DNA of 64,000 nt from Escherichia phage FL31: the sequence record PP400782. One strand, given 5' to 3'. The position numbers and the translations under genes are program-made. Below, piece by piece: positions 1 to 24,054 of this stretch. The notes below the pieces were generated by a model. It worked only from the letters and a program-made list of their open reading frames with translations. It had not been told where the DNA came from and did not search any database. Each line of letters opens with the position of its first letter. Position 1 is the first letter of the stretch.

Positions 1-354
<354 letters not shown>

Positions 355-14220: not shown

Positions 14221-17200
14221 ATGGTTGACATCAAACGTAAGTTCAGGGCCGAAGATGGTCTTGACGCAGGCGGTGATAAGATAGTTAACGTTGCGCTTGC
14301 TGACCGCACAGTTGGCACCGATGGCGTGAACGTTGACTTTTTGGTGCAAGAAAACACCGTACAGAATTATGACGATACGCGCGCGTATACAAAAGATTTT
14401 ATTGTTCTTTATGATAATCGTTTTTATCAAGCTTTAAGCGATATTCCAGCTCCGGCAGGCCCTTTCTCTTTGGGTAAATGGAAGGCAACTCGTACAGATG
14501 CAGATTGGATTACAGTTCAAGGCGGAGATTTCCAATTATCAGTAGGTAACTCTATTGCGGTTGATACTTCAGCTGGCACTGATATTAATTTCACTTTGCC
14601 TCAAAATCCTTTAGATGGCGATACAGTTATTTTGTCTGATATTGGCGGTAGAGTAGGCTATGTAAAAGTTCAAATTACTGCAGCGGCTCAAAGTATTGTA
14701 AACTTTAGAGGACAACAGGTTCGTTCAGTTTTAATGACGCACCCAAAATCTAAAATGGTCTTCATTTTTAGCAACCGCCTATGGCAAATGTATATTTCTG
14801 ATTATGAACGTAATGCAGTCACAGTAACTCCTGCTAAGCCGTATCAGGCGCAACCTAACGATTTTATCATTCGTCGTTTTACATCAGCCGCTCCTATTAA
14901 TATTACATTGCCTCGCAATGCTAATAATGGCGATATTATTAATTTAGTTGATTTAGACAAATTAAACCCGTTATATCACACAATTGTCAAAACTTACGAT
15001 GATACAACTTCTATACGAGAAGCTGGTGTTCATGTAGCAGAAGGACGTAATACTGCGGAAGCGTTCTTTGTTTATGATTCTGCTAATAGCTTATGGCGTG
15101 TTTGGGAAGGTGACCAGAAATCTCGTTTACGTATAGTTCGTAATGATACTGATTTACGCCCTAATGAAGAAGTTCTTGTGTTTGGAACTAATAATGATAC
15201 AATCTCGACGGTAAATCTTACTTTGCCTACAGATATTTTGTCTGGCGATACTGTTAAAATATCGTTGAATTATATGCGTAAAGGGCAAACTGTAAAAATT
15301 AAAGCTGCTGAAGGCGATACAATTGCTACCAGTATTTCTTTATTACAGTTCCCAAAACGTTCAGAGTATCCACCTGATGCACAATGGGTTTCTGTTAGTG
15401 AGCTGGAATTTAATGGCGATACTTCGTATGTACCTGTACTTGAGTTAGCTTATATAGAAGATTATTCATCTGAAACAAAATATTGGGTAGTTCAACAAAA
15501 CACTGTAACCGTCGAACGAGTCGATGCATCGAGCAATACAACTCGAGCTCGTTTAGGTGTTATTGCTCTTGCTTCTCAAGAGCAAGCAAATGTTGATTTA
15601 GAAAATGCTCCTGGTAAAGAACTGGCTATTACTCCGGAAACATTAGCAAATCGTACAGCAACTGAAACTCGTCGTGGTATTGCTCGTATTGCAACAACTG
15701 CACAAGTTAACCAGAATACCGATTTTGCATTCCAGGATGATTTGATTATTTCTCCTAAGAAATTGAACGAACGTACAGCAACTGAAACCCGTAGAGGTGT
15801 TGCTGAAGTTGCAACTCAGGCTGAAACTAATGCTGGCACAGATGATACCACTATTATTACTCCTAAGAAATTGGATGCCCGTCAAGGTTCTGAAGTTTTA
15901 TCCGGTATTGTAAAATACACATCTACGACTGGTACTACAGCTGCTACTATTCGTGGTAATGCTGGGACTAACGTTTATAACAAATCCGTAGATAATTTAA
16001 CTATTTCTCCAAAGGCTCTTGACCAGTATAAAGCTACCCCTACTCAACAGGGCTCAGTAATTCTTGCTATTGAAAGCGAAGTTATCGCTGGCGAATCACA
16101 AGCTGGTTGGGCTAATGCTGTAGTGACCCCTGAAACTCTGCATAAGAAAACTTCTACTGATGGACGTATTGGTTTAATTGAAATTGCTACGCAAGCAGAA
16201 ACTAACACTGGAACTGATTATACTAGAGCAGTAACGCCTAAGACGTTAAATGATAGGAAAGCTACGGAAGGATTATCTGGTATAGCCGAAATTGCTACGC
16301 AAGTTGAATTTGATACTGGAACTGATGATACTCGTATCTCAACTCCACTGAAAATTAAAACTCATTTTGATTCTTCTGACCGTACCAGTGTTAATTCTGA
16401 TTCCGGACTTATTGAAGAAGGAACCTTGTGGAACCATTATACTCTTGATATTTCTAAAGCAAATGAAACACAACGTGGTACACTTCGTGTAGCGACCCAA
16501 GCTGAATCTAATGCAGGAACTTTAGATGACGTTCTTATTACTCCTAAAAAGCTTTTAGGGACTAAGTCCACTGAAACATCTGAAGGTGTAATTAAGGTTG
16601 CTACTCAAGATGAAACTGTAACGGGAACTTCCACTAATACTGCTGTATCACCTAAGAATTTAAAATGGATTGTTCAATCAGAACCATCATGGACTGCTAC
16701 TACAGCAATTCGTGGATTCGTTAAAACTTCGTCTGGTTCTATTACATTCGTTGGTAATGATACAGTTGGTTCAACACAACCTTTAGAATCATATGAAAAA
16801 AATAGCTATGCTATATCTCCATATGAATTAAACCGTGTACTTGCTAACTATTTGCCATTAAAAGCAAAAGCAGCTGATAGTAATTTGTTAGATGGTCTAG
16901 ATTCTCTTCAGTTCATCCGTAGAGACATCGACCAGACGGTTAATGGTTCTTTAAGTCTTACTAAACAGACCAACCTGAGTGCCCCTTTGGTATCTACAAG
17001 CACCGCTTCTTTTGGTTCCGAAGCATCTGTTACTCGTAGATTAACTCTTAATGACTCTAGCGGTTCCGAAATAGTTTTCACTAAAGGAACCCAATCTCTT
17101 AGTAATAAAGAGAATTTCGTTGTTAGAGTATGGGGTAATAGCGCTACAGATGGTGCCCGCGATACAGTATTTGAAGCGGGTGACGAAACCGGATACCATT

Positions 17201-18054
17201 TCTATTCTCAGCGCGCTGCTGATAATAAAGTATCATTTAATATTAATGGAACACTTTATTCAACAGGTATTGTTTCTACAAATGGATTAAATGTTACAGG
17301 TGTTTCTACCTTTACCGGGTCTATTAGTGCTACAGGCGAAATTGTTTCTAGTTCTCCTATTGCATTCAGAGCTATTAACGGTAACTATGGTGTTATGCTT
17401 TATAACGCTGGTAACAGTTCTTATATTGCATTAACTAACTCAGGTGACCAGACCGGGACGTTTAATAACTTACGCCCGATCACGATTAACAACGCCACAG
17501 GCTTAGTTCGTCTTGACAATGGTGTTCAAATCACAAGTGGTGCAACAATAACTACCGGCGGGTTAACTGTAAATAACAGAATTATTTCTAACGGCGTTAA
17601 AACTGCCACGGTTTATACCGATAAACCAACAGCTTCTACTGTAGGTTTTTGGTCTATTGACATTAACGATTCTGCTGTATATAGCCAATTCCCTGGATAC
17701 TGGACGCGTGATAACAAAGGTAACCGTGACCAAGAAATTAAATATCCTGGTACTTTGACTCAATTCGGCAATAGCTTAGATTCGCTTTATCAGGATTGGA
17801 TTTGTTATCCTACGGGTGCAAATGGTGGTAGTATTCGTTATACTCGTACCTGGCAGAAAAATAAAGATGCTTGGACTTCATTTGCAATGGTATTTGATAG
17901 TGGCAACCCACCTTCACCTAGCGATGTCGGTGCTATCCCATCTGATAATGCTGTTATTGGAAACCTTACTGTTCGAGACTTCTTACAATTAGGAAATGTG
18001 AGAATTGTTCCAGACCCGGTTAACAAAACAGTTAAATTTATATGGGTTGAATAA
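14221..18054 (+). CDS. 34: long tail fibre proximal subunit gp34
   Basis: 1277 aa; N-terminus MVDIKRKFRAEDGLDAGGDKIVNVALADRTVGTDGVN matches recalled T4 gp34. Confidence 0.9.
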   Translation: MVDIKRKFRAEDGLDAGGDKIVNVALADRTVGTDGVNVDFLVQENTVQNYDDTRAYTKDFIVLYDNRFYQALSDIPAPAGPFSLGKWKATRTDADWITVQGGDFQLSVGNSIAVDTSAGTDINFTLPQNPLDGDTVILSDIGGRVGYVKVQITAAAQSIVNFRGQQVRSVLMTHPKSKMVFIFSNRLWQMYISDYERNAVTVTPAKPYQAQPNDFIIRRFTSAAPINITLPRNANNGDIINLVDLDKLNPLYHTIVKTYDDTTSIREAGVHVAEGRNTAEAFFVYDSANSLWRVWEGDQKSRLRIVRNDTDLRPNEEVLVFGTNNDTISTVNLTLPTDILSGDTVKISLNYMRKGQTVKIKAAEGDTIATSISLLQFPKRSEYPPDAQWVSVSELEFNGDTSYVPVLELAYIEDYSSETKYWVVQQNTVTVERVDASSNTTRARLGVIALASQEQANVDLENAPGKELAITPETLANRTATETRRGIARIATTAQVNQNTDFAFQDDLIISPKKLNERTATETRRGVAEVATQAETNAGTDDTTIITPKKLDARQGSEVLSGIVKYTSTTGTTAATIRGNAGTNVYNKSVDNLTISPKALDQYKATPTQQGSVILAIESEVIAGESQAGWANAVVTPETLHKKTSTDGRIGLIEIATQAETNTGTDYTRAVTPKTLNDRKATEGLSGIAEIATQVEFDTGTDDTRISTPLKIKTHFDSSDRTSVNSDSGLIEEGTLWNHYTLDISKANETQRGTLRVATQAESNAGTLDDVLITPKKLLGTKSTETSEGVIKVATQDETVTGTSTNTAVSPKNLKWIVQSEPSWTATTAIRGFVKTSSGSITFVGNDTVGSTQPLESYEKNSYAISPYELNRVLANYLPLKAKAADSNLLDGLDSLQFIRRDIDQTVNGSLSLTKQTNLSAPLVSTSTASFGSEASVTRRLTLNDSSGSEIVFTKGTQSLSNKENFVVRVWGNSATDGARDTVFEAGDETGYHFYSQRAADNKVSFNINGTLYSTGIVSTNGLNVTGVSTFTGSISATGEIVSSSPIAFRAINGNYGVMLYNAGNSSYIALTNSGDQTGTFNNLRPITINNATGLVRLDNGVQITSGATITTGGLTVNNRIISNGVKTATVYTDKPTASTVGFWSIDINDSAVYSQFPGYWTRDNKGNRDQEIKYPGTLTQFGNSLDSLYQDWICYPTGANGGSIRYTRTWQKNKDAWTSFAMVFDSGNPPSPSDVGAIPSDNAVIGNLTVRDFLQLGNVRIVPDPVNKTVKFIWVE

Positions 18055-18062
18055 GAGGTTAT

Positions 18063-19187
18063 ATGGAAAAATTTATGGCAAGGTTTGGACATGGATACGT
18101 CCAAACGCCGTTTTTATCGGAAAGCAATTCAGTTAGATTTAAGCTAAGTATAGCGGGTTCATGCCCGCTTTCAACAACTAATCCGTATATTTTGTTCCAA
18201 AACGAGCCTTTAGGGTTGCAGTCTTTTGGTATTGGACTAAATGTTAGGGTGATAAATCCTGAAAATGGAACTATAGTTGATAGTAAATTATACAATTTTG
18301 CGCCTACAAATAATGCAACTTCGGCAGCGTTTATTTCGTTTGTTAATACATACGCGGATAATTTCATTTTCGCATTTATTTCTAATAACAAATTTAATTT
18401 GCCACCAGAAATAATTGAATGGTTTAAAGCTGCTGGGAGTTCAGTTATACCGTCAATTGAAGTTGCTAGTCTTGTTGATATTTCATATTCAGCGTTTTAT
18501 GTTTCAGGTAAAAATACTATTGCATTAGAACACATAAAATACAGTAATAAGAAAACAATTTCTGATTACGCAACTCCATTAGATATTGTATATGACTCTA
18601 TTGCTGATATAGGTGCTACCGGCTATCCTAGACGCACATATGAAGCTCTAGAAACGTTTTTATCTCCTGTTGGAGGAACTAACAATGAAATAAAAAGGAT
18701 GCCTACATCATCCCTTGTTACTCCTATCGCAAACTATGGATTAAAGCCTACAGATTTTCTTTATTTGAAATTTCAATTAATGGCTGATGAAGAATTATTA
18801 GAGGAAGGAACCACAAGACTTTCAATTCGTTTCTTTAAGTCTCCATCTAGCTCTCCTATATCATCTAAAGATATAAACTTTGATGGAACTGCTGGTGAAT
18901 GGAAGTTATACGAAGAATATGTTGAAATACCAGCCGAAGCTGATGGCTTTACGGTATATTGTTACCGTACGGCCCCAGTCGGTCAAGGTGGACTAAGAAA
19001 TGTTATTTTCACTGAAGTATCATGTAACGGAAGTATAGCAAAACCTGCCGAGTTTGGTATAAACGGTATTCGTGTTAATTACATTGATGAATCATTAACC
19101 GGTAATGATATAATGGACTTGCCTACTCAGTTATCTAACGACACAGGTAAGGTATTTGGGCAGGAATTTAAAGAGTACACAGAATAA
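18063..19187 (+). CDS. 35: long tail fibre hinge protein gp35
   Basis: 374 aa; synteny between 34 and 36. Confidence 0.8.
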   Translation: MEKFMARFGHGYVQTPFLSESNSVRFKLSIAGSCPLSTTNPYILFQNEPLGLQSFGIGLNVRVINPENGTIVDSKLYNFAPTNNATSAAFISFVNTYADNFIFAFISNNKFNLPPEIIEWFKAAGSSVIPSIEVASLVDISYSAFYVSGKNTIALEHIKYSNKKTISDYATPLDIVYDSIADIGATGYPRRTYEALETFLSPVGGTNNEIKRMPTSSLVTPIANYGLKPTDFLYLKFQLMADEELLEEGTTRLSIRFFKSPSSSPISSKDINFDGTAGEWKLYEEYVEIPAEADGFTVYCYRTAPVGQGGLRNVIFTEVSCNGSIAKPAEFGINGIRVNYIDESLTGNDIMDLPTQLSNDTGKVFGQEFKEYTE

Positions 19188-19212: not shown

Positions 19213-19220
19213 TATAAATA
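19213..19220 (+). promoter_or_regulatory. late promoter TATAAATA for genes 36-37
   Basis: Exact TATAAATA about 27 nt upstream of the gene 36 ATG. Confidence 0.7.
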
Positions 19221-19246: not shown

Positions 19247-19903
19247 ATGGCCGATTTAAAAGCCGGAAGTACAGTTGGTGGTTCCGTCATATGGCATCAA
19301 GGCAATTTTCCTTTAATGCCAGCTGGCGATGACATCCTATATAAAACATTTAAATTATACACCGAATATAACAAGCCAAAAGCGGCTGATAACGATTTCG
19401 TATCTAAAGCAAATGGTGGGACATATCTCAAAAAGGTAATCTTTAACGAAGGTGTTGCAGTCAAAACAGCAGATGACCAAACGAATGGCATTTTTTCTGG
19501 CGGTGGTGACGCCGCGACATTCGACCAAACAAACATGGATATTGTTTCGTGGTATGGTATTGGGTTTAAATCATCTCAAGGTACAGGTGAAAGAACTGTT
19601 GTAATTGATACTCGCACCGGTAATATAAGTTCTAAAGGCGTTATTGAAGCATCTCAATTCAGAGCCACAACGTTAGCACCTTTAAATAATTACGACCTTA
19701 CTCGCAAAGATTATGTTGATAGTCAAATAAATACAGTTAATGCTAATGCAAACAGTCGTGTACTCCGTTCAGGAGATACGATGACCGGCGCGCTAACCGC
19801 CCCAAACTTTTTCTCACAGAATCCTGCATCTCAACCCTCGCATGTTCCACGATTTGACCAAATTGTTATTAAGGATTCTGTTCAAGATTTCGGCTATTAT
19901 TAA
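19247..19903 (+). CDS. 36: long tail fibre distal connector gp36
   Basis: 218 aa; N-terminus MADLKAGSTVGGSVIWHQGNF. Confidence 0.85.
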   Translation: MADLKAGSTVGGSVIWHQGNFPLMPAGDDILYKTFKLYTEYNKPKAADNDFVSKANGGTYLKKVIFNEGVAVKTADDQTNGIFSGGGDAATFDQTNMDIVSWYGIGFKSSQGTGERTVVIDTRTGNISSKGVIEASQFRATTLAPLNNYDLTRKDYVDSQINTVNANANSRVLRSGDTMTGALTAPNFFSQNPASQPSHVPRFDQIVIKDSVQDFGYY

Positions 19904-19911
19904 GAGGACTT

Positions 19912-22900
19912 ATGGCTACTTTAAAACAAATACAATTTAAAAGAAGCAAAACTGCAGGAGCACGTCCTGCCGCTTCAGTATTAGCCGAAGGTGAATTGGC
20001 TATAAACTTAAAAGACCGTGTACTTTTTACTAAAGATGACCAAGGAAATATTATTGATCTGGGTTTTGCTAAAGGTGGTAGTATTGACGGGAATGTTATT
20101 CATACTGGCAATTATAACCAAACTGGCGATTATACTTTAAATGGCACCTTCACTCAGACAGGTAATTTTAATTTAACCGGTATTGCTCGAGTAACTCGTG
20201 ATATTATTGCCGCTGGGCAGATTATGACTGAAGGCGGAGAACTTATTACAAAAAGTTCAGGTACAGCGCATGTTCGTTTTCATGATTCAGCTAATCGTGA
20301 ACGTGGAATCATTTATGCCCCGGCTAATGATGGATTAACTACGCAAGTAGTTAATATCCGCGTTCAAGACTACGCCGCCGGTGATGAAAGCACCTATGCA
20401 TTTTCAGGCAGTGGCCTATTTACTTCACCTGAAGTATCAGCATGGAAATCTATGTCAACTCCTCAGATTTTGACAAATAGAGTTATTACTAATAATAAAT
20501 CTACGAGCGATTATGATATTTATTCTATGGCAGACAACGTTCCATTGTCTGAAAGCACTACTGCTATTAATCATCTCCGTGTTATGCGCAATGCTGTAGA
20601 CGCTGGTGTATTCCATGAAGTTAAAGATAATGATGGAATAACTTGGTATACCGGAGATGGCTTAGACACTTATCTTTGGTCGTTTACCTGGTCCGGCGGA
20701 TTGAAAGCAGGCCATTCTATTTCTGTTGGTACTCCTGGTGGCAATAAAGGATACTCTGAATTAGGGACTGCTTCAATTTCTCTTGGCGATAATGATACCG
20801 GGCTAAAATGGCATCAGGATGGATATTATTTCAGCGTCAATAATGGAACGAAAACATTTTTATTTAGCCCTAGCGAAACAACTAGCCTAAGAAAATTTGT
20901 AGCTGGATATTCTACTAATGGAACAGATTTAACTACTCCTCCGACTGAAAACTATGCATTAGCCACTGTTGTTACTTACCATGATAATAACGCGTATGGT
21001 GACGGTCAAACTCTTTTAGGTTATTATCAGGGCGGTAATTATCACCACTATTTCCGCGGTAAGGGTACTACAAACATTAATACTCATGGCGGTTTGTTAG
21101 TTACTCCTGGTAATATTGACGTTATTGGTGGTTCTGTTAATATCGATGGTAGAAATAATTCTTCTACACTGATGTTTAGAGGTAACACAACTGGTGCTAG
21201 TTCAGTTGATAATATGACAATTTCTGTATGGGGTAATACGTTTACTAATCCTAGTGTAGGTAATCGTAAAAACGTTATGGAAATTTCTGACGCAACTAGT
21301 TGGATGAGCTATATTCAAAGACTTACTACTGGTGAAGTAGAAATGAACGTCAATGGTTCATTTGAATCATCTGGTGTTACTGCTGGAAATAGAGGAGTTC
21401 ACACAACAGGCGAAATTTCATCCGGAGCAGTGAATGCGCTTCGCATTTGGAATGCAGATTATGGAGCTATTTTTAGACGTTCAGAAGGCAGTCTTCATAT
21501 TATTCCAACTGCTTATGGTGAAGGTAAACATGGTGATATCGGTCCACTTCGCCCGTTTAGTATGGCTTTAGATACCGGTAAAGTTACTATTCCAGATTTA
21601 CAATCAAGTTACAATACGTTTGCTGCTAACGGTTATATTAAATTTGTTGGTCATGGAGCGGGTGCCGGCGGTTATGACATTCAATATGCTCAAGCGGCCC
21701 CTATTTTCCAGGAAATTGATGATGATGCTATAAGCAAATATTATCCTATTGTTAAACAGAAGTTTTTAAACGGCAAAGCTGTTTGGTCTTTAGGTACTGA
21801 AATTAATTCGGGTACATTCGTTATTCATCATCTGAAAGAAGATGGTTCACAAGGCCATACGTCTCGTTTTAATCAGGACGGTACTGTTAACTTCCCGGGT
21901 AACGTTCAAGTTGGTGGTGGCAGAGCTATTATTGCTGAAAATGGTAACATTTTCTCTGATATCTGGGAAACATTTACTTCAGCTGGAGACACTACAAATA
22001 TTCGTGATGCGATAGCTACTCGTGTTTCTAAAGAAGGTGACACGATGACTGGTAAATTGACTTTATCTGCTGGAAATGATGCCCTTGTTTTAACTGCAGG
22101 CGTGGGTGCTTCATCGCACATCCGTAGCGATGTAGGTGGTACAGGTAACTGGTATATAGGCAAAGGCGGCGGCGATAATGGTCTAGGTTTTTACAGTTAC
22201 ATTACACAAGGCGGTGTATACATAACAAATAATGGCGAAATATCGCTTTCTCCTCAAGGTCAAGGAACATTTAATTTTAATAGAGACCGCCTTCATATAA
22301 ACGGTACACAATGGGTTGCGCATAAATCTGGCGCCTGGGGTGACCAATGGGGTTTAGAAGCTCCTATATTTGTAGATTTTGGATCCGTCAGCAATGACTG
22401 CTATTATCCTATTATTAAAGGAAAATCTGGTATTACTAACGAAGGATATTTTTCCGGCGTAGATTTTGGTATGCGACGCATTACTAATACCTGGGCGCAA
22501 GGTATTATTCGTGTAGGTAACCAGGAAAATGGCCATGACCCACAGGCTGTCTATGAATTCAATCATAACGGCACTTTTTATTCTCCTAACATGGTTCAAA
22601 CCGGCGCAAAACTATCAGCTGGTGGTGGTGACCCGGTATGGACTGGACCGTGTCTTGTTATTGGTGATAATGACACTGGGTTAGTTCATGGCGGTGACGG
22701 CCGAATCAATATGGTTGCCAATGGTATACATATTGCAAACTGGGGAGCAGGCTATCAATCTCATCCTGGGCTTTGGGATTCAACCGGTGCTTTTTGGACA
22801 GAAGTTGGAAGAGCTATCGTTTCTCATGGGCATCTCGTTCAGGCAAATGATAGTTATTCAACGTTTGTCCGTGATGTTTATGTCCGTTCTGATATTCGTG

Positions 22901-23223
22901 TTAAAAAAGACCTTGTTAAATTTGAAAATGCTTCTGAGAAGCTTTCTAAAATTAACGGTTACACTTATATGCAGAAGCGAGGCCTAGATGAAGAAGGTAA
23001 TCAGAAATGGGAACCTAACGCCGGTTTGATAGCTCAAGAAGTTCAAGCTATTTTGCCTGAATTAGTTGAAGGTGACCCTGATGGCGAAGCTTTACTTCGT
23101 TTGAACTATAACGGTGTAATTGGTTTAAATACAGCTGCAATCAATGAGCATACTGCAGAAATTGCGGAACTTAAATCAGAAATTGAAGAACTTAAAGCAT
23201 TAGTTAAATCATTGTTAAAATAA
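19912..23223 (+). CDS. 37: long tail fibre distal subunit gp37 with C-terminal intramolecular-chaperone (peptidase S74-like) domain
   Basis: 1103 aa; N-terminus [22 protein letters not shown]; C-terminal ...SDIRVKKDL...[15 protein letters not shown]... coiled-coil tail. Confidence 0.9.
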
Positions 23224-23228
23224 TAAGA

Positions 23229-23242
23229 GGGGCTTCGGCCCC
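23229..23242 (+). promoter_or_regulatory. UUCG hairpin between genes 37 and 38, next to the gene 38 SD
   Basis: ggggc-UUCG-gcccc followed by ttGGAGGtttatATG; no U run, so not a typical terminator. Confidence 0.4.
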
Positions 23243-23254
23243 TTGGAGGTTTAT

Positions 23255-24028
23255 ATGGCAGTAACAGGACCATGGGTAGGATCGTCTGCAGTAGTTAATA
23301 CAGGACAAAATTGGATGGGTGGCGCGGCCCAACGATTAAGAATGGGCATTCCGTTTTGGATGAGTAATATGATAGGTCGATCTGTTGAAATAATTCACAC
23401 GCTTGGAGCAGACCATAACTTCAATGGCCAATGGTTCCGAGATAGATGTTTTGAGGCAGGTAGTGCACCTATAGTGTTTAATATCACTGGAGATTTAGTA
23501 TCATATTCTAAAGATGTTCCTTTATTCTTCATGTACGGAGATACACCAAATGAATATGTTACTTTGAATATTCATGGTGGAGTTCATATGTGGGGACGAG
23601 GTGGTAACGGTACTGTAAACGGAAACCCAGGTACAAATGGCGGCGATGTAATCCAAAATGATATCGGCGGAAGACTTCGTATTTGGAACTATGGCGTTAT
23701 TGCATCAGGCGGCGGTGGTGGTGGTGCAGTGTCATTACAGAATAGCTGGGCGCCAAATGCTACAGCAGGTGGCGGTGGTGGTAGACCATTTGGCCTCGGC
23801 GGCGGTGGCGTTAATTGGCCGGGTGGTAATGCTAGTTATGACGCCCCGGGCGGTGCCGGTTACACTTCCCAATTCGGCGGAGGCAATGGTGGTGATGCTG
23901 GAGGTCGGGGCGGAGATGGATGGGGTAATCACTTATCTAGATCTGGCGGTGGTGCTCCTGGCAGAGCAGTATTCGGAAGTTCACCGTCATGGGGTGCTAC
24001 AGGCACAATCTACGGCTCCTGGATTTAA
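23255..24028 (+). CDS. 38: receptor-recognising adhesin gp38 (T2/T6 type, glycine-rich motifs)
   Basis: N-terminus [21 protein letters not shown]; several poly-Gly GRM blocks; C-terminal TGTIYGSWI. Confidence 0.85.
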
Positions 24029-24046
24029 ACGATAATACCTCTCAAT

Positions 24047-24054
24047 TATAAATA
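24047..24054 (+). promoter_or_regulatory. late promoter TATAAATA for holin t
   Basis: Exact TATAAATA 19 nt upstream of the t ATG; GGGAGG SD. Confidence 0.7.

Follow-up and report, generated by a model that had tools for sequence, protein, structure and literature searches.

Genes 37 and 38 in a 64,000-nt stretch of DNA from Escherichia phage FL31 (hereafter the window) most probably encode the tip with which the long tail fibre of an RB69-like coliphage, a Mosigvirus, recognizes its receptor, and we put the probability of this reading, together with the whole mechanism proposed below, at about 93%. Both products are identical from the first to the last residue to deposited FL31 proteins, gp37 to XAO15624.1 and gp38 to XAO15625.1, the latter annotated as 'adhesin protein'; no protein-level difference was found, FL31 is a Mosigvirus and the window is Mosigvirus-like. 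The pair was thus already deposited and its receptor use has been studied (PMC12032242), and the architecture and structure of such fibre tips, the cleavage step and loop-based specificity were established previously. The features described in an earlier note on this DNA were confirmed to be present, far beyond chance. Their coordinates are given in Table 1.

In the proposed mechanism, gp37 would be made late, probably from a 36-37-38 transcript, and would trimerize, assisted by the S74 chaperone domain that forms its last 111 residues. This domain is predicted to cut itself off thereafter at R992/S993 (S993 being the conserved serine and K998 the conserved lysine). Cleavage would bare a triangular fibre tip ending in ...DVYVR. 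One gp38 monomer may then dock on this threefold tip via its N-terminal helical domain, with W7, W20 and W35 entering three equivalent tip pockets. The glycine-rich motifs in the C-terminal half of gp38 would form a polyglycine-II sandwich, a scaffold displaying the hypervariable segments as distal loops, and these loops are expected to bind a porin of the outer membrane, in all likelihood OmpF, with Q206 in HVS3 as the putative decisive contact. The sequence analysis itself established the identity to the FL31 proteins, the homologies and domain boundaries, which residues are conserved, how variation is distributed and that the chaperone domain is linked with Gp38_N; we infer from homologues that gp37 is cleaved, that gp38 docks on it, and what fold and receptor gp38 has.

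Table 1. Features of the gene 37 and gene 38 region (nucleotides are numbered as in the window, residues as in the encoded protein)
Feature	Residues	Nucleotides	Strand	Remarks
T4-type late promoter box TATAAATA		19213..19220	+	upstream of gene 36; function inferred
Gene 37, distal long-tail-fibre subunit	1103 aa + stop	19912..23223	+	
gp37 shaft domain	418-561	21163..21594	+	homologous to gp34 C-terminal trimerization domain
gp37 mature distal tip	914-992	22651..22887	+	ends ...RDVYVR; predicted gp38 docking surface
Predicted gp37 self-cleavage site	R992/S993	22885..22890	+	VYVR/SDIRVKK; from S16 site alignment and conserved residues
Intramolecular chaperone domain (Peptidase_S74)	993-1103 (111 aa)	22888..23220	+	
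Peptidase_S74 Pfam core	993-1052	22888-23067	+	
gp37 C-terminal helical tail	1073-1103 (31 aa)	23128-23220	+	putative coiled coil of the earlier note
Hairpin GGGGCUUCGGCCCC		23230..23243	+	between genes 37 and 38; gp38 ribosome-binding site directly 3'
Gene 38 Shine-Dalgarno sequence GGAGG		23245..23249	+	5 nt before ATG
Gene 38, monomeric tail-fibre tip adhesin	257 aa + stop	23255..24028	+	
gp38 N-terminal attachment domain	1-40	23255..23374	+	PF21721; invariant W7, W20, W35
gp38 specificity region		23594..23971	+	approximate mapping onto Trojet scheme
GRM1	114-119			gp38, approximate
HVS1	120-151			gp38, approximate
GRM2	152-157			gp38, approximate
HVS2	158-171			gp38, approximate
GRM3	172-180			gp38, approximate
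HVS3	181-207			gp38, approximate
GRM4	208-220			gp38, approximate
HVS4	221-230			gp38, approximate
GRM5	231-239			gp38, approximate
gp38 codon 206, CAA (Gln)	206	23870..23872	+	in HVS3

The gene positions are the same as in T4, and homology to the T4 protein extends over the N-terminal two thirds of gp37, whereas the T4 gp37 tip and T4 gp38 have no similarity to the proteins found here. In BLASTP, homology to T4 gp37 was limited to aa 1-640 of gp37 (35% identity) and T4 residues above 743 (approximately 744-1026) had no significant match in gp37; a PDB search likewise gave no match between the T4 tip structure and gp37. The absence of a T4-type distal tip, which the earlier note had proposed, was therefore supported by both searches. 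T4 has its receptor-binding site within gp37, and its gp38 is absent from the virion (PMC6851490, PMC3157838). The gp37 shaft domain was detected with Pfam PF21446 (aa 450-550, E 1.1e-7) and with PDB entries 4UXE and 5NXF (aa 418-561, E ~2e-12). At the distal end, the PDB search matched aa 914-1103 to the tip and chaperone domain of S16 gp37 (6F45_A, E 2.5e-43); the docking role suggested for aa 914-992 was taken from the S16 structure (PMC6851490, PMC7917993), with the tip aligned to 6F45_A.

The Peptidase_S74 family (PF13884) matched aa 993-1052 of the 1103 residues of gp37 with an E value of 1.1e-12 and 48.4 bits (cut-off 22), covering profile positions 1-57 of 58, and the SDIRVKK string begins at aa 993 (nt 22888). 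Together with the 6F45_A match, this agrees with the S74-like chaperone domain that had been noticed at the end of gp37; the feature is real, but the stretch given in the earlier note starts at 22850, 38 nt before the domain boundary at 22888. Multiple alignment showed that S993, D994, R996 and K998 are invariant in the gp37 proteins of T2, T6, S16, RB51 and RB69, the cleavage-site serine and the lysine five residues on thus being invariant in six T-even sequences. In an alignment with the MYRF domain (7dc3), S993 corresponds to A49 and K998 to K54, with the same position and spacing; the MYRF sequence at this place is ADLRAK. The S74 domains of endosialidases and phage fibres (K1F endoNF, T5 pb1) and the MYRF ICA belong to the same Pfam family; S74 domains elsewhere resemble this one in having the serine and lysine where the domain begins and in lying at the C-terminus of a trimeric fibre, but the non-T-even S74 entries in PDB are distant from the gp37 domain in sequence (E 0.02-0.04). 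Schwarzer 2007 and Schulz 2010 are said to have identified the S74 cleavage-site serine and the lysine five residues on as a catalytic dyad. A difference from other S74 proteins is that release of the gp37 domain would create a docking site for a separate adhesin.

S16 gp37 was reported to self-cleave at DLNVS^SDRRIKK (PMC7917993), a site which aligns with R992/S993 of gp37, and C-terminal proteolytic cleavage of gp37 was reported in T2 and T6 (PMC3157838). Cleavage of the FL31 protein and its location in the virion are predicted by extrapolation from T2, T6 and S16, the last being about 50% identical in the region concerned. It is very unlikely that the S74-like domain is instead a non-cleaving remnant kept on the mature fibre: the cleavage-site serine and lysine are invariant, the domain is 100% identical to that of RB51 and differs by 2 residues from that of RB69, and an uncleaved domain would cover the gp38 docking surface, according to the description of S16 (PMC7917993). 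Moreover, the chaperone domain co-occurs with Gp38_N, in that the ORF upstream of the Gp38_N ORF ended in a chaperone-like domain in all 35 of the 35 loci examined (E <= 2.5e-6).

Both Pfam Gp38 families matched gp38, PF05268 with an E value of 1.4e-83 (280.5 bits, cut-off 25) and PF21721 (Gp38_N) with 1.8e-21 (76.3 bits, cut-off 25). The PDB search returned the S16 adhesin 6F45_D as a full-length match (gp38 aa 1-257 to 1-249, E 2.7e-50) and the PP01 adhesin 9v85 (E 4.6e-75), whereas the T4 gp38 chaperone showed no similarity to gp38 in BLASTP (best E value 0.86). These sequence matches support the reading of gp38 as an adhesin, made in the earlier note, and place it with the T2/T6/S16 type and not with the T4-type chaperone. 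The RB69 record AY303349 and several others call the orthologue 'distal long tail fiber assembly catalyst', which would make gp38 an assembly catalyst or chaperone and no component of the virion, as in T4. However, this label is inherited from gene order and the RB69 annotation note itself calls the T2-subfamily gp38 the unrelated adhesin; given also the missing similarity to T4 gp38 and the strong homology to adhesins whose crystal structures place them on the fibre tip, we consider a catalyst role extremely improbable.

W7, W20, W35 and the glycine blocks were invariant in an alignment of gp38 with the RB51, RB69, T2, T6 and S16 proteins, and the role of the tryptophans is taken from the S16 structure (PMC6851490). 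The N-terminus is of the RB69/S16 subtype (MAVxGPWVGSS): over the first ~40 columns, 25/41 residues were identical in S16, 23/42 in T6 and 19/42 in T2, and the T2 and T6 proteins have an extra 'VP' insertion. Thus, what had been described as a conserved T2/T6 N-terminus is indeed conserved, but belongs to a different subtype. Of the gp38 residues, 25% are glycine, a share that rises to 34% in aa 110-257; the glycine runs are G6, G5, G4, G3 and G3. Among 25 gp38 homologues, the glycine-rich motifs (GRMs) were near-invariant and syntenic and the intervening segments (HVSs) hypervariable, with a mean column entropy of 0.60 bits for GRMs vs 1.98 bits for HVSs (Mann-Whitney p = 3e-11), a pattern that fits the earlier description of poly-glycine blocks flanking variable segments.

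We placed the gp38 start at ATG 23255, which is preceded by GGAGG at 23245-23249, and rejected TTG 23243, which opens the mechanical ORF. A 125-aa ORF in an alternate frame inside gp38 (23658-24035) was also rejected as a gene, being an expected by-product of GGN-rich coding. The hairpin between genes 37 and 38 had a folding energy which was not significant compared with shuffles (z = -1.63); hairpins are present at the equivalent intergenic place in T2, T6 and S16 with different stem sequences, and this kept position with differing stems is a better argument for the hairpin than its folding energy. In the G2133 record it is annotated as an intrinsic terminator, a reading we did not adopt because there is no U-run and the gp38 ribosome-binding site follows 2 nt downstream. 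The TATAAATA box upstream of gene 36 probably drives a late 36-37-38 transcript, judging by its position, and no further TATAAATA box was found between 19221 and 24046. This motif is not enriched in the whole window (6 found vs 7.9 expected). Three + strand boxes are located 8-35 nt before the ORF starts of gene 34, gene 36 and t, and it is this placement alone that favours a function, suggestively.

Our searches covered a phage collection, IMG/VR loci and PDB. Amino acid identity of gp38 was 99% to RB51 (2 differences), 96% to RB69 (9 differences), 64% to T6 and 49% to T2. RB51, RB68 (an OmpW variant) and RB69 have OmpF-subtype adhesins, all of 257 aa like gp38, and the same gp37 length; however, RB51 is a Tequatrovirus and its flanks are ~70% identical to the window. 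S16 (PDB 6F45; Dunne et al. 2018) has the same architecture: its gp37 tip is a trimer, its chaperone domain cleaves itself, and its gp38, a monomer, combines a beta-helix and a polyglycine sandwich with the three tryptophans. It is, however, ~50% identical and has different HVS loops and a shorter gp37 (749 aa vs 1103 aa). T2 and T6 (Trojet et al. 2011) share the gene order and the GRM/HVS plan, and C-terminal processing of gp37, predicted here, has been reported for them (PMC3157838). The C-terminal 204 aa of gp37 are 33% identical to T2 and 26% to T6. Besides the 'VP' subtype, the receptors differ: those of T2 are FadL/OmpF and that of T6 is Tsx. For S16, Marti et al. 2013 reportedly observed binding to Salmonella OmpC. 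The fibre locus has the mosaic structure, produced by recombination, that T-even phages typically show: the window joins a Mosigvirus backbone to a gp37 shaft found without change in a Tequatrovirus and to a specificity domain of RB51/RB69 type.

OmpF is the most likely receptor of gp38, as judged from homologues. I46V and L181I are the sole differences from RB51 gp38, and the HVSs are those of RB51 and RB69 except for L181I. RB51 gp38 is OmpF-specific, and a Q206L change redirects it to OmpW (bioRxiv 10.64898/2026.04.02.716166); RB69 and RB51 require OmpF (PMC3157838), and FL31 was grouped with OmpF-dependent phages (Npj Viruses 2025, PMC12032242). Since gp38 is two residues away from an OmpF-binding adhesin and has kept Q206, OmpF is a likely receptor. 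The candidates listed in the earlier note (OmpA/OmpC/FadL/Tsx) did not include OmpF.

On ompF and tolC mutants, the plating efficiency of FL31 decreased by ~1 log, which is under the authors' own threshold (PMC12032242), so OmpF was not strictly required in that assay, while RB51, whose HVSs differ by L181I, was scored as OmpF-specific. In addition, FhuA and a complete LPS core were reported to be needed by RB69 and RB51 as well (Trojet et al., PMC3157838), and the 21900-22400 region of gp37 diverges from RB69 (59-77% nucleotide identity) as much as any part of gp38. These data would suit a situation in which gp38 sets specificity only in part, a substantial share coming from a second receptor pathway or from the distal, mosaic third of gp37, such that the phage would not behave as a simple OmpF phage. 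We consider this unlikely. FL31 and RB51 were assayed by different methods (spot titration on MG1655 mutants vs RB-TnSeq), so the discrepancy between them may be methodological; in close relatives, swapping domains or mutating single residues of gp38 alone is enough to switch the receptor (bioRxiv 10.64898/2026.04.02.716166); and S16 gp38 caps the gp37 tip and is itself the distal end of the fibre (PMC6851490). Furthermore, G2133 has nearly the same gp37 (23 aa differences) and a different gp38 specificity domain, which fits gp37 as a generic shaft. Slightly less likely still is a redundant second entry route of the FL31 fibre through another porin, a TolC-linked factor or the mosaic distal region of gp37; if true, receptor use would be widened by the gp37 context or by two conservative substitutions in gp38.

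The practical gain lies in annotation: gp37 can be labelled with confidence as carrying a self-cleaving chaperone domain and gp38 as an adhesin. A prediction of OmpF can be attached to gp38, Q206 being the position to monitor for a switch from OmpF to OmpW, and the window provides a clean case of modular exchange.

The features described in the earlier note for gp37, the distal long-tail-fibre subunit, and gp38, the tail-fibre tip adhesin, are real and correctly located. The region belongs to the long-tail-fibre genes of a T-even-type phage, which all lie on the + strand. Exact-sequence look-up identified gp37 as XAO15624.1 and gp38 as XAO15625.1 ('adhesin protein'), both from Escherichia phage FL31. 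Over its first 25 kb, the window shared 96.8% identity with Escherichia phage vB_EcoM_PTE-Eco05 and 95.8% with RB69, which places the backbone in Mosigvirus, as reported for FL31 (PMC12032242).

Features of the long-tail-fibre region and their positions in the window
Feature	Position	Strand	Details
Late promoter box	14179	+	TATAAATA; just upstream of gene 34
Gene 34	14221-18054	+	ORF
Gene 35	18063-19187	+	ORF
Late promoter box	19213	+	just upstream of gene 36
Gene 36	19247-19903	+	ORF
Gene 37	19912-23223	+	ORF, 1103 aa
Match to gp34 trimerization domain	21163-21594		gp37 aa 418-561
High-GC interval	22001-24000		GC up to 44.5%, GC skew to +0.21, vs 35-39% GC elsewhere
SDIRVKK start	22888		gp37 aa 993
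Intergenic hairpin	23230-23243		GGGGCUUCGGCCCC, CUUCGG type
Gene 38	23255-24028	+	ORF
Alternate-frame ORF	23658-24035	+	125 aa, stop-free; rejected
gp38 codon 206	23870-23872		CAA (Gln)
Late promoter box	24047-24054	+	just upstream of gene t
Holin t	24062/24074-24733	+	ORF

The peptidase-S74-like chaperone domain proposed for the end of gp37 was recovered as Peptidase_S74 at aa 993-1052 (E 1.1e-12, 48.4 bits, cut-off 22), and the position of SDIRVKK makes the C-terminal domain 111 aa long. Residues 914-1103 aligned with the tip and chaperone construct of Salmonella phage S16 gp37 (6F45_A, E 2.5e-43). The chaperone domain alone also matched a second phage fibre (8jov) and the MYRF autoprocessing domain (7dc3), in which A49 and K54 of ADLRAK align to S993 and K998 with the same five-residue spacing. 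When the last 204 aa of gp37 were aligned with those of RB51, RB69, T2, T6 and S16, S993, D994, R996 and K998 were invariant. S16 gp37 is reported to cleave itself at DLNVS^SDRRIKK (PMC7917993), and in the alignment to the S16 structure this site fell at VYVR^SDIRVKK, the predicted cut in gp37. Serine and lysine are said to be the catalytic pair of the S74 family, from endosialidase work attributed to Schwarzer (2007) and Schulz (2010). In T2 and T6, the fibre C-terminus of gp37 is proteolytically cleaved and gp38 then caps it (Trojet et al., PMC3157838). The gp37 shaft carried a Gp34_trimer-like domain (PF21446, aa 450-550) within a wider match to the gp34 C-terminal trimerization domain (PDB 4UXE and 5NXF, E ~2e-12), an internal paralogy that links the distal half-fibre to the proximal one.

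The glycine-rich adhesin expected downstream was equally clear. It matched PF05268 (E 1.4e-83) and the N-terminal attachment domain Gp38_N (PF21721, E 1.8e-21). Glycine made up 25% of the protein and 34% of aa 110-257, and the longest run had six residues. The S16 adhesin (6F45_D) aligned end to end (E 2.7e-50), and a GFP fusion of 'receptor-recognizing protein gp38' (9v85), probably the PP01 adhesin, aligned at E 4.6e-75. W7, W20 and W35, invariant across six phages, are the counterparts of the three tryptophans through which the S16 adhesin inserts into the threefold gp37 tip (PMC6851490). Translation starts at ATG 23255, five bases past GGAGG; TTG 23243 merely opens the mechanical ORF and was rejected. 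The GGN codons for glycine in gp38 and in the distal part of gp37 cause the rise in GC content and skew, and the same bias accounts for the alternate-frame ORF inside gp38, almost certainly no gene.

At the sequence level neither protein was T4-type, in line with the proposed absence of a T4-type tip from gp37. By BLASTP, T4 gp37 aligned only with aa 1-640 (35% identity), its tip beyond residue 743 had no match in gp37, and the T4 gp38 chaperone showed no similarity to gp38 (E 0.86). At 35/35 loci with a Gp38_N-type ORF (29 on IMG/VR contigs, six in reference phages), the upstream ORF ended in a chaperone-like domain (E 7e-69 to 2.5e-6), even in phages where the attachment domain is all that the gp38-like protein shares. 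Several Klebsiella-type contigs (L027-L035, around 1950-2520) encoded such Gp38_N-only proteins of 164-190 aa, and another locus (L025:1953-3159) had two successive ORFs each opening with Gp38_N; all lay downstream of a gp37 ending in a chaperone-like domain. At L007:1477-1966 (IMGVR_UViG_2974741249_000001, 155101 nt), this domain was split over two frames immediately upstream of gene 38; either the gene is disrupted or the frameshift is a sequencing error.

A search of the window for the T4-type late promoter motif found no box before gene 38. Since the motif was not enriched overall in the window, it is from box placement that we infer co-transcription of genes 36, 37 and 38. The last box lies only 8 nt ahead of the first holin ATG (24062); the true start is probably ATG 24074, which gives a product of 219 aa (MAAPKVSF...) and agrees with the 660-nt gene annotated in PTE-Eco05, so that the 672 nt annotated in RB69 probably begin too early. 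The intergenic hairpin, 2 nt upstream of the gp38 Shine-Dalgarno sequence, has counterparts with different stems at the equivalent place in T2 (GAGGGCUUCGGCCCUC), T6 (GGGGCUUUGCCCC) and S16 (GAGCCUACGGGCUC). The record of vB_EcoM_G2133 labels it a terminator; no U-run follows it.

Variation in gp38 was measured as mean column entropy in 25 sequences (the window, reference phages and IMG/VR loci). Values were 0.25, 0.04 and 0.12 bits for glycine-rich motifs GRM1, GRM2 and GRM3, and 2.10, 2.26, 1.74 and 2.12 bits for hypervariable segments HVS1a, HVS2, HVS3 and HVS4. Pooled GRM columns averaged 0.60 bits vs 1.98 bits for HVS (Mann-Whitney p = 3e-11), bearing out the view that poly-glycine blocks flank variable segments and reproducing the published plan of four hypervariable segments separated by five glycine-rich motifs (Trojet et al., PMC3157838). 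In one T6-like gp38 (L018:1998-2831, IMGVR_UViG_2974787500_000001), the GRM2-HVS2 block was tandemly duplicated, with GGGGGGYYSPFSQMRLTF present twice, which suggests that a loop can be gained where poly-glycine motifs slip or recombine unequally.

Nucleotide identity to reference phages changed along the window. Up to ~19800 and from ~24000 it was 99-100% to RB69 and about 70% to Tequatrovirus phages. The gp37 body (~19800-22700) was essentially 100% identical to Tequatrovirus G2133, with RB69 dropping to 59-77% at 21900-22400; positions 21900-22750 were 99.6% identical to G2133 and OES_C-3. Positions 22700-22900 were 100% identical to PTE-Eco05 and 68-78% to others, the chaperone domain was conserved in all, and the gp38 specificity domain was of RB51/RB69 type. 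gp37 is a mosaic produced by recombination, set in a Mosigvirus backbone. G2133 (L037 1513-5629 vs window 19912-24028) encodes a gp37 that differs at just 23 of 1103 aa, whereas similarity in gp38 stops at ~23550-23600, near GRM1, with no match past ~23600, so that the same gp37 is paired with a different adhesin specificity domain. This is a natural adhesin-domain swap on a constant shaft, and it supports the proposal that specificity is carried by gp38, not by the gp37 shaft. Such modular exchange has already been described for T-even fibres (Trojet et al., PMC3157838).

At the amino acid level, gp38 was 99% identical to that of RB51 (only I46V and L181I), 96% to RB69 (nine differences, six in the attachment domain), 64% to T6, 50% to S16 and 49% to T2. 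RB69 and RB51 depend on OmpF and additionally require FhuA and a complete LPS core (Trojet et al., PMC3157838), and a 2026 preprint scored RB51 as OmpF-specific; there, Q206L in HVS3 turned RB51 to OmpW and the reverse change returned RB68 to OmpF (bioRxiv 10.64898/2026.04.02.716166). Codon 206 of gp38 encodes Gln. FL31 itself was grouped with OmpF/TolC-dependent phages, although its plating on ompF and tolC mutants was down only ~1 log, below the authors' threshold (PMC12032242). OmpF is therefore best regarded as the predicted receptor, with weak dependence. The receptor-tip observation is confirmed and its interpretation supported; all of it was already known, and the same protein pair has been published. 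Only one point does not fit: FL31 depends weakly on OmpF and RB51 is OmpF-specific, although their adhesins are almost identical. This offers a long-shot lead to redundant receptor use.
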